Shown: positions 4,848-15,178, counted from the stretch's first letter. The stretch is 64,000 nt of DNA from an uncultured bacterium (GCA_964529325.1 CAZGWH010000002.1:3750-67749), one strand, 5' to 3'. Made by a program: numbers and translations. Notes: a model not told the origin generated them from the sequence alone.

Positions 4848-4873
4848 GATGAATATATCTGAAAATGGTTACA
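4848..4873 (-). promoter_or_regulatory. Putative ECF-sigma promoter 1 (drives HesB-like selenoprotein)
   Basis: Minus strand TGTAACC-ATTTTCAGATATAT(14)-TCATC, 31 nt upstream of the ATG at 4816. Confidence 0.7.
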
Positions 4874-4904
4874 TTTTAATTTATTATAAATTCTAAATTA
4901 CTTA

Positions 4905-5327
4905 ATGAAAATTAAAATAGAACATGCAAATTTATGTGTCAAAGATATTGATGCGATGATTCACTTTTTACAAACAGCATTTCCTGAATTTAAAATAAGA
5001 TATGATGCAATAGAAATAGATGGGAATAGGTGGGTTCATATTGGTATGGAAACAATTTACTTTGCATTAGAACAAGCGACATTAAAACCTTCTAAATCGT
5101 GGATTCCGTATGCAGGATTTCCAGGAGTAAATCATATTGCATTTGAAGTTGAGAATGTAGAGGAAATTAAAGATCGATTAACAAATGCAGGTTATAAAAA
5201 CTCAACAATTCCTAATAACCATCCTCATCGAAAACGAATTTATTTTAAGGATGCTGAAGGAAATGATTGGGAATTTGTTCAATATTTATCTGATATTCTA
5301 AAAGAGAGAAATGATTATAGATTATAG
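4905..5327 (+). CDS. VOC/glyoxalase family protein
   Basis: IEHANLCV, VNHIAFEV and IYFKDAEGNDWEFV metal-binding VOC motifs. Confidence 0.85.
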   Translation: MKIKIEHANLCVKDIDAMIHFLQTAFPEFKIRYDAIEIDGNRWVHIGMETIYFALEQATLKPSKSWIPYAGFPGVNHIAFEVENVEEIKDRLTNAGYKNSTIPNNHPHRKRIYFKDAEGNDWEFVQYLSDILKERNDYRL

Positions 5328-5354
5328 GTATTTAGAATCAGTCAATTTATTTTT

Positions 5355-5380
5355 TGTAACCAAATGAAAATTCAATCATC
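5355..5380 (+). promoter_or_regulatory. Putative ECF-sigma promoter 2 (trx-sigma-anti-sigma operon; autoregulatory)
   Basis: TGTAACC-AAATGAAAATTCAA(14)-TCATC followed by AAAGTA and an AAGGAG SD. Confidence 0.75.
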
Positions 5381-5402
5381 AAAGTAATAAAAGGAGAATA
5401 GA

Positions 5403-5744
5403 ATGTTTGGATTTTTTAAAACAGAAAGTAAGACAGTGCATGTAACAGATAATACATGGAATGATGAAGTGATAAATTTTGATGGGGTTACACTTGTGGA
5501 TGTATGGGCACCATGGTGTGGACCTTGTAAAATACTCGGACCTGTTATTGATGAAATTTCAAATGAAATTGAAGGCAATGTTAAAATTTGTAAATTAAAT
5601 TCAGATGAAAATAATAAATCAAGAGAGCTTGGCATAAGAGGAATACCTACAATGTTGATTTATAAAAATGGAAAATTAAAAGATACTGTTGTTGGATTAA
5701 TTCCTAAAAATAATATCATAGAAAAAATAGAGGCATGGTTATAA
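5403..5744 (+). CDS. trxA: Thioredoxin
   Basis: WAPWCGPC active site; IRGIPT cis-Pro loop. Confidence 0.93.
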   Translation: MFGFFKTESKTVHVTDNTWNDEVINFDGVTLVDVWAPWCGPCKILGPVIDEISNEIEGNVKICKLNSDENNKSRELGIRGIPTMLIYKNGKLKDTVVGLIPKNNIIEKIEAWL

Positions 5745-5753
5745 TTTTATGGC

Positions 5754-6338
5754 ATGGATTCTATTACAGAAGAGTTAATTCAACTCGCAAAATCAGGTGA
5801 TAAAAAATCTTTATCAACTATTATTAATTTGTATTCAGAGAAACTCTATGGTTTGTCATTTAAATTTATGCGAAATAGAGAAGATGCAGAAGATGTTTTG
5901 CAAGAAACATTTTTAAAAATGATTAATAAAATTAATGTATTTAAGGGGGATTCTACTCTTTACTCTTGGTTATATCGAATTACAGTTAATACAGCTTTAG
6001 AAAAGCTTAGGAAGCATCACCCCTCACATTTTGATGTAAATCTTGACAATGTGGATTATAGTAAACATGATGAATTACCTTCGTTTGAGATTCCTTATTT
6101 GGATAAAAAAGATTTAAAGGATTTAGATTTTAGAAATGAATTAAATATTTTATTAAAAAAGATGAATAGTAAATTAAGAGTAATTTTTATTTTGAGAGAT
6201 ATTGAAGGTAATTCGGTTCAAGATACGGCTAAGATTTTAAATTTATCAGAAACTAATGTTAAAGTTAGGCTGATGAGAGCACGGATGTTCTTAAAAGAAC
6301 ATTTAACAGATTATTTCAGGGAAAGGATAGTTTCATGA
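5754..6338 (+). CDS. ECF (sigma-70 group 4) RNA polymerase sigma factor
   Basis: DAEDVLQETF (region 2), SWLYRITVN, region 4 VFILRDIEG...TAKILNLSETNVKVRLMRAR. Confidence 0.93.
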   Translation: MDSITEELIQLAKSGDKKSLSTIINLYSEKLYGLSFKFMRNREDAEDVLQETFLKMINKINVFKGDSTLYSWLYRITVNTALEKLRKHHPSHFDVNLDNVDYSKHDELPSFEIPYLDKKDLKDLDFRNELNILLKKMNSKLRVIFILRDIEGNSVQDTAKILNLSETNVKVRLMRARMFLKEHLTDYFRERIVS

Positions 6339-6568
6339 AACATGCACATACTATAGAAGAAATGAAATTAATTTGCCAACAGTTTGGTGAAGATATTGAT
6401 TCTGAAATTTGTGAAGAAGTTAAGAAGAGTTTAGAGAATTGCCCTGAATGTAGAATTCATTTTGACTCCATAAAAAAAGTAGTTAATATTTATAAATCTC
6501 ATGAACAAGACTCTGATATACCAAATAATTTATCTAATCGATTAATTAAATCATTAAATTTAAAATAA
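6335..6568 (+). CDS. Soluble zinc-finger (ZAS-like) anti-sigma factor
   Basis: ATGA overlap with the sigma gene; C..FGEDIDSEIC...SLENCPEC; no transmembrane segment. Confidence 0.8.
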   Translation: MKHAHTIEEMKLICQQFGEDIDSEICEEVKKSLENCPECRIHFDSIKKVVNIYKSHEQDSDIPNNLSNRLIKSLNLK

Positions 6569-6571
6569 ATT

Positions 6572-12816: not shown

Positions 12817-12821
12817 CAAAA

Positions 12822-12861
12822 TTTATTTGAGGTGGTTAATTTATTTAGCTACCTCAATAAA
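12822..12861. terminator. Long intergenic stem-loop (terminator or mRNA-stabilising hairpin)
   Basis: TTTATTTGAGGTGGTTAA...TTAGCTACCTCAATAAA. Confidence 0.65.
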
Positions 12862-12866
12862 TACTT

Positions 12867-12892
12867 TGTAACATCTTATACTTTTATTCATC
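12867..12892 (+). promoter_or_regulatory. Putative ECF-sigma promoter 4 (multicopper oxidase)
   Basis: TGTAACA-TCTTATACTTTTAT(14)-TCATC. Confidence 0.65.
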
Positions 12893-12938
12893 TAATTATT
12901 AAACCAAGTAATAATAAAAAAAGGAGTAAAGTAGTAAA

Positions 12939-15091
12939 ATGAAAAATAAATTGAAAAAATATCAATTTTAATAACAATAACTTTTGGGTTAATTAATGCT
13001 CAAAATCAATTAATCATACCAGAAACAATAAGTGGTAATGAGTTTAATCTATCATTACAATATGGAACAACTCAATTGTTAGATGGAAATGAAACTCAAA
13101 CGATGGGTGCAAATGGTGGAAATCTTGCCCCAACATTAATATTTCAAAAAGGTGAATATGTTAATATTAATGTAACTAATAATTTGGATGAAGAAACAAC
13201 TATTCATTGGCATGGAATGCATATAACACCTCAAAATGATGGTGGACCTCATTCTGTAATAATGCCTGGTGATACATGGAATCCTAATTTTACTGTAATG
13301 GATAAAGCGTGTACAATGTGGTATCACCCTCACCTTCATGAAAAAACAAATGAACATGTTACAAAAGGAATTACAGGTTTCATTATTATTAAAGATGAAG
13401 AAGAAGCATTATTAAACTTACCTCGTACTTATGGCGTAGATGATTTTCCTCTTAATTTACAAACCAAACAATTTGATAATTCAAACCAAATTGTAATCGG
13501 TGAACACATTGATAGTGTGCCAATGGCAAATTCAACGGTTGATGCATTTGTTGAATTACCTGCTCAAGTAGTTCGGTTGAGATTATTAAATGGTTCATCA
13601 ATGCGTGTATTTAATCTAGGCTTTTCTAATAATGCAACATTTTATCAAATTGGTTCTGATGGTGGTTTATTATCTGAACCAGTGAGTATGACAAGAGTAC
13701 TACTTGCTCCAGCAGAAAGAGCTGAAATATTAGTAGATTTAAGTGAATTGGAAGGACAAACATTTGAATTAAAAAGTTTTGGTTCTGAAATTCTTGATTC
13801 CTTTTATGGTACTTTAGATTTATCTTCTCCAATGGGAGGACCACCTCCTGGATATGATTCTAATGAATTAAATGGGGCTGATTTTACTTTATTAGAAATT
13901 AATGTTGGAATACAGACTAACAATCCTGTATTATCAATTCCTAATATGTTAGTTGATGTAACACCTTTAAATGAAGCTGATGCAACTGTAGCTAGGTCTA
14001 TAACTATCTCACCAGTTAATTTGCAGACGGGGGCTACAACTGGTCCATATTGGTTTAATAATGAATCATTCAATATGACTGTTATAAATGAAGTGGTTCA
14101 ATTGGGTGATACTGAAATTTGGTCAATATCAAATCAATCACCAGTATCGCATCCATTCCATATACATGATGTACAATTTTATATTTTAGATAGAAATGGT
14201 AATATTCCTCCCGAAAATGAAAGAGGACGAAAAGATGTCGTATTAGTAGGACACCAAGAGACTGTTCGATTCATTGCAAAATTTGAAGACCATGCTGACA
14301 ATCAAGTACCATATATGTATCATTGCCACATGCTTCAACATGAAGATGAAGGCTTAATGGGGCAATTTATTGTTGAAGGAGAAAATATTATTTATGGTGA
14401 TGTTAATTTTGATACCACTATAAATATTTTAGATGTTATTTCAACGGTTGGATATATATTAGGCACAAATCCATTTACATCTGAACAGTTAGTCGTAGCT
14501 GATTTGGATCAAGATGGTATTGTAAATATTATAGATATAATTCAAATTGTAAATATTATTTTAGATAGCAAAATAGAATTTCTTGAACCAATTGCAAAAT
14601 TACAACAAAATGAATTATCAGTTAGCGGTTCAGTGGGTGGAATTCAATTTAACGGTGAATTATTATCTTCAATAAATGGAAATGATATTGTACAGTCTGC
14701 AAATGGAATTACTCTAATTTATAATATGACTGGTAAATTAGAAACAACAACATTTGAATTATCTGAAAATTCATCTGATTTTGTAATTTCATCATCTATG
14801 GGTAATGAAGTAGAATTACAAACAGTAAGTCAATTTGCAATTTTAGATAATTATCCAAATCCATTTAATCCATCGACAACAATTTCTTATCAATTAAATC
14901 AAAGTGGAAAAATAAATATTAACATATTTGATTTAAATGGAAAATTAATTGATGAATTAGTAAATGATTTTAAAGAAATGGGAAATTATTCAATAAATTG
15001 GAATGGTTCAAATTTAGCAAATGGTGTTTACATTGTTAAATTACAATCAAATGAATTTACTGAAATGAGAAAAATTACTTTATTGAAGTAA
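12939..15091 (+). CDS. Secreted multicopper oxidase (CueO/laccase-like) with dockerin and C-terminal sorting domain; one-base frameshift in signal peptide
   Basis: HWHG, WYHPH, HPFHIH and HCHMLQHED Cu motifs; dockerin; YPNPFNP CTD. ATG 12939 (SD AAGGAG) reaches the main frame only if one A is added to the A6 run at 12954-12959. Confidence 0.88.
14593..15091 (+). repeat. Copy 1 of a 499-bp near-identical C-terminal module
   Basis: Aligns without indels to 15769-16267; about 24 substitutions by hand count (about 95% identity). Confidence 0.95.
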
Positions 15092-15109
15092 TTTAATTTA
15101 CAGAGGAGA

Positions 15110-15148
15110 AAATTTAGTGGGATAAATTTATTTTATCCCATTGAATTT
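15110..15148. terminator. Long intergenic stem-loop
   Basis: AAATTTAGTGGGATAAA...TTTATCCCATTGAATTT. Confidence 0.65.
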
Positions 15149-15152
15149 ATTG

Positions 15153-15178
15153 TGTAATTTTTAGTTATAAATATCATC
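15153..15178 (+). promoter_or_regulatory. Putative ECF-sigma promoter 5 (cupredoxin-dockerin gene; one mismatch)
   Basis: TGTAATT-TTTAGTTATAAATA(14)-TCATC. Confidence 0.5.

Follow-up and report, generated by a model that had tools for sequence, protein, structure and literature searches.

In the thiol-oxidative stress systems SigR-RsrA of Streptomyces coelicolor and SigH-RshA of actinobacteria, the gene for an autoregulated ECF sigma factor is followed directly by that for a small, soluble, cytoplasmic Cys-rich anti-sigma factor of the ZAS type, and SigR promoters follow the consensus GGAAT-N18-GTT. The SigR/SigH regulons include thioredoxin genes, permitting a thioredoxin feedback loop (PMC3961337, PMC3177212, PMC4960319). 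For Neisseria sigma-E, the -10 element has been deduced as CGTCTAAH, transcription starting 6 nt beyond it, and both RsrA and the anti-sigma factor MseR can dispense with the ZAS histidine (PMC2893595). The consensus of Escherichia coli RpoE (sigma-E) is GGAACTT / TCAAA, and Bacillus subtilis SigX uses TGTAAC at -35 and CGWC at -10 (PMC12153292). The ROS- or HOCl-induced ECF16 factors (Caulobacter SigF, Bradyrhizobium EcfF and Brucella BcrS) recognize tGTAACc-N16-CGAA (PMC3420878, PMC8315932). The main text of the 2021 ECF re-classification (ECF Hub) mentions neither thioredoxin, Marinimicrobia nor GTAAC.

We analyzed a 64-kb window, that is, the whole stretch of DNA under study, from the 2.3-Mb genome of an uncultured marine Marinimicrobia (SAR406) bacterium. 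A first-pass annotation had described five copies of a TGTAA(C/T)-type motif with invariant spacing and had read them as ECF promoters; all five copies were recovered, each in its place and on its strand. Judging from sequence comparison, we estimate a probability of roughly 0.87 that the five elements serve as promoters for the ECF sigma factor whose gene lies at 5754-6338. The motifs very probably constitute genuine promoters recognized by this adjacent alternative sigma factor, and the regulon is very probably small, conserved across the phylum and concerned with thiol, sulfur and copper stress.

A search for TGTAAY-N15-TCATC returned exactly five matches in the window, all within 10.3 kb, against 0.20 expected and a maximum of 2 in 100 dinucleotide shuffles. 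Between 4500 and 15500, a spacing of 15 gave these 5 matches, and each other spacing from 8 to 23 gave 0 or 1. Genome-wide, the exact pattern occurred 14 times and the other spacings 4-21 times each; therefore, the 9 matches outside the cluster are close to background, and what stands out is the local cluster (5 of 14 within 10.3 kb, binomial probability 3e-9). The AT-rich genome, the unexceptional genome-wide count at this spacing and the likeness of sites 2 and 3, which extends past the core, would also suit chance matches or functionless fragments of a locally duplicated intergenic repeat. We give this explanation next to no credence, because the window expectation and the cluster probability speak against it, the spacers vary between sites and genomes while the boxes stay fixed, the element is kept in genomes of up to 63% GC, and the cross-genome conservation described below already contradicts it.

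All five sites were exact pattern matches, intergenic and directed at a gene on the correct strand, and the gap between the last base of TCATC and the start codon, put at roughly 20-50 nt in the first pass, measured 22-46 nt. Site 1 (4845..4874, minus strand; ATGTAACC-N14-TCATCATA) lies upstream of a HesB-like gene, 31 nt from ATG 4816 on the minus strand. It scored 20.7 bits with a matrix trained on other genomes; its counterpart in the 95% relative L001, TGTAACC...CCATCATA, scored 22.6 bits, and its conservation was seen within the genus only. Site 2 (5354..5383, plus strand; TTGTAACC-N14-TCATCAAA) stands 22 nt before ATG 5403 and is indeed, as had been claimed, a copy preceding the sigma's own operon (trx, sigma, anti-sigma), of which it is the putative autoregulatory promoter. 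Its 23.9 bits are the joint top score of the genome, and its position is kept in orthologues. Site 3 (6571..6600, plus strand) has the same boxes (TTGTAACC-N14-TCATCAAA) and the same 23.9 bits, 35 nt before ATG 6633; a site follows the anti-sigma gene at the same position in G001, G004, G016 and G058, and we regard site 3 as a putative internal promoter ahead of the rhodanese cluster. An RNA contig (6500-6854) reads through from the anti-sigma gene across this site. Site 4 (12866..12895, plus strand; TTGTAACA-N14-TCATCTAA), 46 nt before ATG 12939 of a multicopper oxidase gene, has a weakened -35 element (TGTAACA) and scored 18.5 bits, with orthologous sites before the oxidase at 24.0 (L001), 25.3 (G034 and G036) and 18.5 bits (G016). 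Site 5 (15152..15181, plus strand; GTGTAATT-N14-ATCATCTTA), 42 nt before ATG 15221, matches the pattern with TGTAAT and scored 9.0 bits with the matrix from other genomes, compared with 18.5-23.9 bits for the other four. L001 carries TTGTAACT (18.4 bits) at this position, and site 5 is a weak or decayed copy, degenerate in this genome.

Comparison with relatives refined the element to wTGTAACC-N14-yCATCwAA. The ECF promoter reading of the first pass was supported by this, although its boxes required amendment: the -35 element is TGTAACC and the -10 element CATCwAA, which reads CGTC or TATC in some lineages, and the leading T of TCATC is variable. Among the 23 orthologous operons of the order (sigma identity 37-95%, GC 27-63%), the element lies ahead of the genes for thioredoxin, ECF sigma and small Cys-rich anti-sigma in about 20. 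At 19 orthologous loci, the sequences upstream of this operon align without gaps at the element, with TGTAAC invariant, C as the seventh base in 17 and CATC or CGTC at a fixed distance in 18; the rest of the intergenic DNA could not be aligned. At 17 of 20 distant loci from across the phylum, the matrix matched exactly once on the sense strand upstream of the sigma operon, and antisense matches at the 20 loci numbered 2 in total.

With this genome and its twin withheld from training, a matrix was run over 4.6 million positions, and window sites 3, 2, 1 and 4 took genome ranks 1, 2, 5 and 7. Matches of at least 20 bits numbered 5 in the real sequence and 0 in a reversed-sequence control. Six of the best 10 matches were intergenic and correctly oriented (P = 1e-4; 9.7% of the genome lies outside ORFs), and the control gave 3 matches at the threshold of these 10. 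Beyond the cluster, only C35:8009 and C7:48728 stood out as further candidates in the genome. Thus, conservation upstream of orthologues and a distribution distinct from the coding background, on which the first-pass annotation had staked its reading, were both found.

The promoter-proximal position at co-functional genes would equally be expected of operators for a DNA-binding regulator, such as a repressor of redox or sulfur genes, in place of -35/-10 boxes. However, dyad symmetry is absent, the half-sites are unlike each other and keep a strict orientation towards the gene, both the spacing and the AAC / TC letters fit ECF promoter architecture, and the interval before the start codon given above also argues for a promoter. 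Sigma and anti-sigma aside, the locus holds no conserved transcription-factor gene, and we consider operators very improbable.

The sigma operon opens with a thioredoxin gene (5403..5744, plus strand; WCGPC), which matched Pfam Thioredoxin (E = 4e-27) and NCBIfam TIGR01068 (101.9 bits, above cut-off). The second gene (5754..6338, plus strand) encodes an ECF (group IV) sigma factor of 194 aa with regions 2 and 4 only, within the about 170-220 aa of that class (Pfam Sigma70_r2, E = 4e-14; Sigma70_r4_2, E = 2e-12; TIGR02937, 91.9 bits, cut-off 42.9). Its closest solved structures are 8z6g_B, 6in7_B, SigW and RpoE, and it is nearer AlgU, SigW and RpoE (E = 1e-24 to 1e-18) than SigH (4e-13). The third gene (6335..6568, plus strand), whose start overlaps the sigma stop codon by 4 nt, encodes a 77-aa soluble anti-sigma candidate with four invariant cysteines (C14, C26, C36 and C39), a variant ZAS motif and no hydrophobic segment in its sequence. 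In place of H-x3-C-x2-C, the window protein reads S32-x3-C36-x2-C39, the ZAS histidine being replaced by Ser32; 7 of 17 orthologues have the histidine and the rest Tyr or Ser, with C-x2-C, C14 and C26 invariant.

The likeness of this candidate to ZAS anti-sigma domains appears weak but specific. Pfam gave no match for the window protein, and zf-HC2 matched 7 of 17 orthologues (best E = 4e-6). The family profile matched the RsiW anti-sigma domain as its sole hit in the PDB (E = 0.0025), and the RsrA model was the only NCBIfam anti-sigma model to touch the window protein (23.7 bits, below the cut-off of 62.5). An AlphaFold2 model of low confidence (pLDDT 65) has four helices. Sigma and anti-sigma occur as a pair in 122 of 201 genomes of the phylum, with one copy each, as expected of cognate partners, and are jointly absent in the relatives G003, G006, G012, G019 and G022. 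Metatranscriptome RNA contigs (5430-5927) join trx to sigma; none of the contigs was seen to join sigma directly to anti-sigma.

From the adjacency of this sigma gene, its co-occurrence with the motif and the usual logic of autoregulation, we infer that its product is the reader of the motif. Genomes that encode the sigma (25) held on average 1.24 copies of the motif and those that lack it (36) held 0.31 (reversed control 0.11), a roughly fourfold higher frequency in sigma carriers. Alternatively, the elements might be genuine alternative-sigma promoters read by a different ECF-size sigma factor, with the adjacent sigma operon as one of its targets. About four sigma genes of ECF size are present in the genome, and AAC -35 elements are common to many ECF groups, SigX TGTAAC (PMC12153292) and ECF16 tGTAACc (PMC3420878) being examples, so cross-recognition is conceivable. 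Notwithstanding, we find this improbable, because the motif tracks this sigma/anti-sigma pair across 61 relatives and lies immediately upstream of the operon in nearly every operon-bearing genome of the phylum, whereas the genome matrix scan found no comparable high-scoring site at the other three ECF-size sigma genes.

Reading by the adjacent sigma would bring further transcription units under its control. Downstream of site 1, the HesB/IscA-like gene (4538..4816, minus strand) contains an in-frame TGA (4721-4723; MAGVG-U-GGPRLG) that is retained in L001 and is a probable selenocysteine codon; the genome encodes tRNA-Sec and SelB. With the TGA read as U, the protein matched Pfam Fe-S_biosyn and scored 60.7 bits with NCBIfam IscA_HesB_Se, below the cut-off of 85. 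RNA contigs from three metatranscriptomes cover 4628-4802 of this gene, and its unit ends at a bidirectional terminator (4482..4517), a G+C-rich hairpin of 16 pairs (6 GC) with T/A runs on both sides. The tightly packed rhodanese cluster (6633..12816, plus strand), identified by Pfam and NCBIfam matches, encodes two rhodaneses, DUF6132 and DUF302 proteins, a Zn-ribbon protein, a GST_N/Grx-like protein, an MBL-fold protein (GloB or persulfide-dioxygenase-like), a YeiH-family transporter, a 124-aa unknown protein, a di-haem cytochrome c peroxidase and an acetolactate-decarboxylase-like protein. The cluster is presumably a single operon, because of its gene spacing and the lack of a strong terminator, and gene order is identical in G034, G016 and G004.

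The secreted multicopper oxidase (12939..15091, plus strand; Pfam Cu-oxidase_3, Cu-oxidase_2 and Por_Secre_tail) has dockerin-like repeats and a T9SS sorting tail, and RNA contigs cover 13021-13358. Its frame is broken at an A6 run (12954-12959), which is A7 with an intact frame in L001, so that ATG 12939 opens a 10-codon frame out of register with the oxidase frame. Contigs of four DNA runs also contain A6; the oxidase is frameshifted in this population. The last unit encodes a secreted T9SS-tail protein (15221..16267, plus strand; Por_Secre_tail; RNA contig 15643-15805) with a weakly cupredoxin-like N-terminal domain (Halocyanin domain, E = 0.0055 only), followed by a terminator (16297-16323). 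The metatranscriptome contigs cover the motif-driven genes, not the glyoxalase gene between sites 1 and 2. These are assembled contigs whose ends at 5430-5441 and 4802 fall inside coding sequences, and the start sites are predictions.

G004, G016, G034 and G036 retain the site positions ahead of the rhodanese or SQR-like gene and of the multicopper oxidase gene. Among eight relatives, intergenic oriented matches lie upstream of genes for four thioredoxins, a 1-Cys peroxiredoxin, OsmC, a rhodanese, DUF6132, an SQR-like flavoprotein and a multicopper oxidase, which together form a coherent set for thiol and sulfur redox functions. Together with the locus described here, the targets comprise thioredoxins, peroxiredoxin, OsmC, rhodaneses, the persulfide-dioxygenase-like cluster, an SQR-like enzyme, the HesB-like selenoprotein and secreted multicopper oxidases.

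Overall, we propose a putative mechanism for this regulon. Region 4 of the sigma factor would read the -35 element TGTAACC and region 2 the -10 element CATCwAA, with an AAC-to-TC distance of 18 nt in the element. Under reducing conditions, the co-transcribed 77-aa four-cysteine anti-sigma factor, probably zinc-bound, would keep the sigma inactive; thiol oxidation of its cysteines, or their persulfidation by reactive sulfur species, would release it. Free sigma would then transcribe its own operon, a positive feedback, as well as the genes for the HesB-like selenoprotein, the rhodanese, persulfide-dioxygenase-like and peroxidase cluster and the secreted copper oxidases, and the operon thioredoxin should re-reduce the anti-sigma, a negative feedback. 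The inducing signal is deduced entirely from gene content. It is conceivable, albeit unlikely, that the four-cysteine, histidine-optional anti-sigma senses sulfide or reactive sulfur species (persulfide, polysulfide) and not general disulfide stress. To our knowledge, the sensors of reactive sulfur species described so far are one-component repressors or activators (CstR, SqrR/BigR and FisR), not sigma/anti-sigma pairs. If such sensing held, the phylum-wide module would act, in the SAR406 bacteria of oxygen-minimum waters, as a sulfur-stress switch of the ECF type, coupling persulfide detoxification (rhodaneses, persulfide-dioxygenase-like and SQR-like proteins, the YeiH exporter) to selenoproteins and T9SS-secreted multicopper oxidases.

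Among the known systems, the -35 element of ECF16 is nearly identical to the one described here, and ECF16 systems also have an oxidative-stress role. Membership in ECF16 was rejected, since the -10 element here is CATCwAA as opposed to CGAA and the 77-aa anti-sigma lacks a hydrophobic segment, whereas ECF16 anti-sigmas are polytopic membrane proteins (DUF1109/NrsF). B. subtilis SigX shares the TGTAAC of the -35 element. Third among the solved homologues ranks B. subtilis SigW, whose anti-sigma RsiW was matched by our anti-sigma profile; however, RsiW and RsiX span the membrane and are removed by regulated proteolysis, and their regulons concern the cell envelope. E. coli RpoE, likewise among the nearest solved homologues, resembles the window sigma in its promoters, which have an AAC at -35 and, at -10, a TC leading into A-rich bases; the AAC-to-TC distance of rpoH P3 (GAACTT-N16-TCTGA) is the identical 18 nt. 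In contrast to RpoE, TGT rather than GG precedes AAC here, the anti-sigma is not of the membrane RseA type, and envelope stress is an unlikely stimulus.

Neisseria meningitidis sigma-E, likewise an autoregulated sigma of the RpoE type, is paired with MseR (NMB2145), a small, soluble, cytoplasmic anti-sigma of the ZAS type encoded directly downstream. Its -10 element closely resembles CATC(T/A)AA, and the ZAS histidine, dispensable in MseR, seems to be so here. However, its -35 element (GTMAGBWTT, with a 12-13 nt spacer) is unlike ours, its known regulon is msrAB only, and its operon has no thioredoxin gene. Gene arrangement, anti-sigma type and the presence of thioredoxin genes in the regulon recall SigR-RsrA and SigH-RshA. 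Membership in the SigR/SigH group (ECF12) was rejected, as TIGR02947 SigH_actino gave 80 bits against a cut-off of 251, SigH was the weaker match, and the promoter letters differ from the SigR consensus. Compared with SigR/SigH, thioredoxin is here the first gene of the sigma operon itself, and rhodanese/persulfide genes, a selenoprotein and secreted copper oxidases are added to the regulon. Compared with RsrA, the anti-sigma family keeps four cysteines invariant and the ZAS histidine in a minority of orthologues. By analogy, the system can be described as SigR/RsrA-like logic built on an RpoE/SigW-like sigma factor.

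The 64-kb window holds precisely five copies of TGTAAY-N15-TCATC, compared with 0.20 matches expected, and no shuffle gave as many. The matches, at 4848-4873 on the minus strand and at 5355-5380, 6572-6597, 12867-12892 and 15153-15178 on the plus strand (sites 1 to 5), are precisely the copies and orientations that the first-pass annotation had proposed. All five are intergenic and directed toward a gene. Between the end of the TCATC block and the start codon lie 31 nt at site 1 (codon at 4816, minus strand), 22 nt at site 2 (5403), 35 nt at site 3 (6633), 46 nt at site 4 (12939) and 42 nt at site 5 (15221), and the earlier estimate of correctly oriented sites roughly 20-50 nt before start codons thus becomes a measured 22-46 nt. 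In the region 4500-15500, a spacing of 15 yielded all five matches; the other spacings tried, between 8 and 23, yielded at most one each. The whole assembly (2.3 Mb, 118 contigs, 29% GC) contains 14 exact matches, a total within the range of other spacings (4-21). Therefore, the signal is the local cluster, and the probability of 5 of the 14 matches falling inside 10.3 kb is 3e-9. We consider it highly probable, at nearly nine in ten, that the sites are promoters read by the adjacent ECF sigma factor.

The genome was assembled from seawater and belongs to Candidatus Neomarinimicrobiota (Marinimicrobia, SAR406). Site 1 faces an unannotated HesB/IscA-like gene of 92 codons (4538-4816, minus strand), whose unit is closed by a bidirectional terminator. 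This gene has an in-frame TGA at 4721-4723 (MAGVG-U-GGPRLG), which is also found in the 95% relative. As tRNA-Sec (anticodon tca) is present in the window's genome and SelB scores above its cut-off, the TGA is plausibly a selenocysteine codon. Site 2 lies before the genes for a thioredoxin (5403-5744), the ECF sigma (194 aa, 5754-6338) and a 77-aa Cys-rich protein (6335-6568) that overlaps the sigma stop codon, in agreement with the earlier statement that one site precedes the sigma's own operon. Site 3, in the 64-nt gap 3′ of the 77-aa protein gene, precedes a rhodanese-led cluster encoding two rhodaneses, DUF6132 and DUF302 proteins, a zinc-ribbon protein (Zn_ribbon_8 match confirmed at 8038-8211), a GST_N/Grx-like protein, an MBL-fold protein related to GloB and to the dioxygenase part of Blh, a YeiH-family transporter, a di-haem cytochrome c peroxidase and an acetolactate-decarboxylase-like protein. 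The gene after site 4 encodes a multicopper oxidase that carries a T9SS tail; the one after site 5 encodes another T9SS protein, faintly similar to cupredoxins, and is followed by a terminator. The C-terminal ~165 residues of these two proteins (14590-15091 and 15770-16267; AKLQQNELSVSGSVGGIQFNGELL...), comprising a linker and the T9SS sorting domain, are nearly identical and their N-terminal domains are unrelated, which suggests that the export tail was recently duplicated or copied by gene conversion. A gene immediately upstream of the regulon (1663-4458, local GC up to 38%) lacks the motif and encodes a secreted 931-aa protein with an extreme content of Cys, Asp and Gly; this protein contains poly-Gly linkers and dockerin-like repeats and also carries a T9SS tail.

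A protein search with the sigma across 61 related genomes identified orthologues in about 25 (37-95% identity). Such whole-genome searches replaced an earlier scan of genome contigs with the sigma protein, which recovered a single close relative plus four unrelated ECFs of ~25% identity. The small Cys protein follows the sigma in all loci read, and the thioredoxin gene precedes it in all loci of the order except one (L017). Across loci, the 110 nt upstream of thioredoxin are unalignable apart from the motif, with GC contents of 27-63%. In about 20 of 23 loci, this stretch carries TGTAAC(C/T) and, at a fixed distance, (C/T)(A/G)TC; three further loci have ATC or CTC variants. When the elements of 19 loci were aligned (18 without gaps), TGTAAC was invariant, the next base was C in 17 and C-A/G-T-C occurred in 18; after one skipped base, the next two positions were A in 16 and in all 19. 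The resulting consensus is wTGTAACC-N14-yCATCwAA. In the -10 box originally read as TCATC, the leading T is not conserved. The exact expression misses real sites in relatives, for example site 1 in the sister locus (CCATC), and we therefore replaced TCATC with CATCwAA.

Orthologous sites from other genomes alone served to train a two-block matrix; the window's genome and its 95% twin were left out. Across the whole phylum, a profile of the small Cys protein found one copy in 122 of 201 sampled genomes. Lack of conservation upstream of orthologues had been named as grounds for abandoning the motif; in addition to the loci upstream of thioredoxin, 17 of 20 distant loci contain exactly one sense-strand matrix match upstream of the sigma operon. 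The match lies at -20 to -41 (once at -71) where the sigma comes first, near -400 to -470 where thioredoxin does, and near -760 to -800 where another, apparently thioredoxin-fold, gene does. Antisense matches numbered only two in all 20 distant loci.

When both strands of the whole assembly were scanned with the matrix, sites 3 and 2 shared the top score of 23.9 bits, site 1 took rank five with 20.7 and site 4 rank seven with 18.5; site 5 scored only 9.0 bits. Five matches reached at least 20 bits, compared with none in a reversed-sequence control, and 10 compared with 3 reached at least 17.5 bits. The genome-wide background check proposed in the first-pass annotation favored the motif, as 6 of the top 10 matches are intergenic and correctly oriented in a genome with 9.7% of its DNA outside ORFs of at least 100 codons (P = 1e-4). 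The orthologues of sites 1-5 in the twin genome scored 22.6, 23.9, 23.9, 24.0 and 18.4 bits; therefore, -35 matches at sites 4 and 5 were lost in the window's lineage. Two additional intergenic matches precede a second T9SS multicopper oxidase (C35:8009) and a twin-arginine molybdopterin oxidoreductase (C7:48728). The first of these candidate promoters (C35:8009-8060) contains a tandem duplication of ~21 nt (ACTAATATTTTCATCTTATTA twice), repeating the -10 box. The matrix scan found no comparable site at any other ECF-size sigma gene, of which the genome has about four in all.

In the 61 relatives, the strict pattern TGTAACY-N15-CRTCWAA gave 42 matches, compared with 7 in the reversed control. 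The 25 sigma-bearing genomes held 31 of them (1.24 per genome), and the 36 genomes without the sigma held 11 (0.31 per genome), mostly of the weaker TGTAACT form. A phylum-wide housekeeping promoter was rejected as an explanation, because strict copies number only ~1-4 in each genome and genomes lacking the sigma have few if any. One genome of the same genus (G002), reported to be 100% complete, yielded no sigma orthologue in the protein search, and the sister genome has the whole locus; the absence may be a recent loss.

Other genera keep the gene order and site positions. Sites lie before thioredoxin (24.0 bits) and the oxidase (25.3 bits) in G034; before thioredoxin and the oxidase in G016, with a third site there between the small protein gene and that of an SQR-like flavoprotein; before thioredoxin and rhodanese in G004; and before the oxidase in G036. 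Among eight relatives, other intergenic, oriented matches precede two thioredoxin gene pairs alike between genera, as well as genes for a 1-Cys peroxiredoxin, an OsmC protein, a rhodanese lipoprotein and DUF6132; the wAA extension is missing from matches within coding regions. In several distant genomes, the gene directly 3′ of the anti-sigma gene encodes DUF6132, a membrane protein of ~65 aa that bears the motif FIGCNSGSC; in G008, it has its own motif copy (loci L089, L090, L106 and L041, in G239, G146, G225 and G008:C66, respectively). DUF6132 appears to belong to the core of the regulon. Judged from gene content, the regulon centers on the redox chemistry of thiols, peroxides and sulfur, and the secreted copper oxidases form an arm specific to the lineage.

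Assembled contigs from six seawater metatranscriptomes are compatible with the proposed units; their ends at 5430-5441 and 4802 lie inside coding sequences and cannot define start sites. Contigs from 5430 to ~5930 join thioredoxin to the sigma. Another (6500-6854) runs from the anti-sigma gene over site 3 into the rhodanese gene, which would make site 3 an extra promoter inside a longer transcript. Transcripts of the HesB-like gene, the DUF6132/DUF302 region, the oxidase and the last T9SS gene likewise appear among these RNA contigs; those of the glyoxalase gene, located between sites 1 and 2, do not.

The multicopper oxidase gene is frameshifted. The ATG at 12939 opens a 10-codon frame (12939-12971), and the signal peptide goes on in the -1 frame past an A6 run (12954-12959). 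The sister genome has A7 at the same run and an intact gene. Assembly error was ruled out as the cause: A6 is present in contigs of four DNA runs from two studies, and hence the frameshift is not an error of this assembly alone. The gene is still represented in RNA (contigs cover 13021-13358); it may be a pseudogene, undergo phase variation or be expressed through slippage. The orthologous oxidase of G016 (L074, reverse complement of G016:C52, 7445-9637) is likewise split, into ORFs of 395 and 316 aa, and its promoter has TGTAACA instead of TGTAACC, the same pairing of a weakened -35 and a broken oxidase as in the window.

In 17 orthologues of the small Cys protein, four cysteines (C14, C26, C36 and C39) are invariant, and the ZAS histidine position is His in 7, Tyr in 5 and Ser in 5, the window's genome being among the last. 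The family profile matches the RsiW anti-sigma domain over its HLETCEKC motif (E = 0.0025), and Pfam zf-HC2 is matched by 7 of the 17. A Pfam search with the window protein alone gave no match; the RsrA model was the sole model touched, with a score under the cut-off. The predicted structure, of low confidence (pLDDT 65), consists of four helices; C-x2-C opens helix 3, an arrangement that fits a class I anti-sigma domain. Given that the evidence comprises the profile, zf-HC2, a sub-cut-off RsrA score and a low-confidence model, we describe the protein as ZAS-like rather than as a proven ZAS member.

Marinimicrobia are abundant and uncultured. The literature searched contained essentially nothing on their gene regulation, and no report naming the phylum together with both an ECF and an anti-sigma. 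Our analysis links a phylum-wide promoter consensus to a specific sigma/anti-sigma pair, which provides a ready regulon predictor for metagenomes and metatranscriptomes and aids SAR406 genome annotation. It also offers a testable hypothesis on how these bacteria react when oxidant, sulfide or copper levels fluctuate at the interface of oxic and anoxic zones, and the small parts (the 194-aa sigma, the 77-aa anti-sigma and the 30-bp promoter) are amenable to direct testing in E. coli. The finding is real and, as a new phylum-wide case of a well-known kind of regulatory module, moderately interesting biologically. Because this type of system is mechanistically expected, its value lies more in annotation and ecology than in concept.

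The element is directional and bipartite, phylogenetically conserved and specific within the genome, and it co-occurs with a single sigma/anti-sigma pair; its target genes form a coherent set. The original interpretation as an ECF promoter was essentially correct. Following established ECF biology, region 4 of the adjacent sigma would read TGTAACC and region 2 CATCwAA, and the sigma would autoregulate its own operon. The soluble Cys protein would sequester the sigma until its thiols are modified, and thioredoxin, the product of the first gene of the operon, would reset the switch by SigR-RsrA logic. In SigR-RsrA, the regulon includes thioredoxin genes, so that a thioredoxin feedback loop can operate (PMC3961337, PMC3177212, PMC4960319). 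Disulfide stress, reactive sulfur species and copper are the candidate signals here.

The AAC-to-TC distance of the window element is 18 nt, which we take to be the same as in E. coli sigma-E promoters (rpoH P3). Its -35 equals the tGTAACc of ECF16 (PMC3420878, PMC8315932) and the TGTAAC of SigX (PMC12153292), and its -10 resembles the CGTCTAAH consensus of Neisseria sigma-E (PMC2893595) and the TCAAA of E. coli sigma-E (PMC12153292). AlgU, SigW and RpoE are nearer to the window sigma than SigH/SigR is. The module would work like SigR-RsrA or Neisseria sigma-E/MseR but belongs to neither the SigR group nor ECF16.
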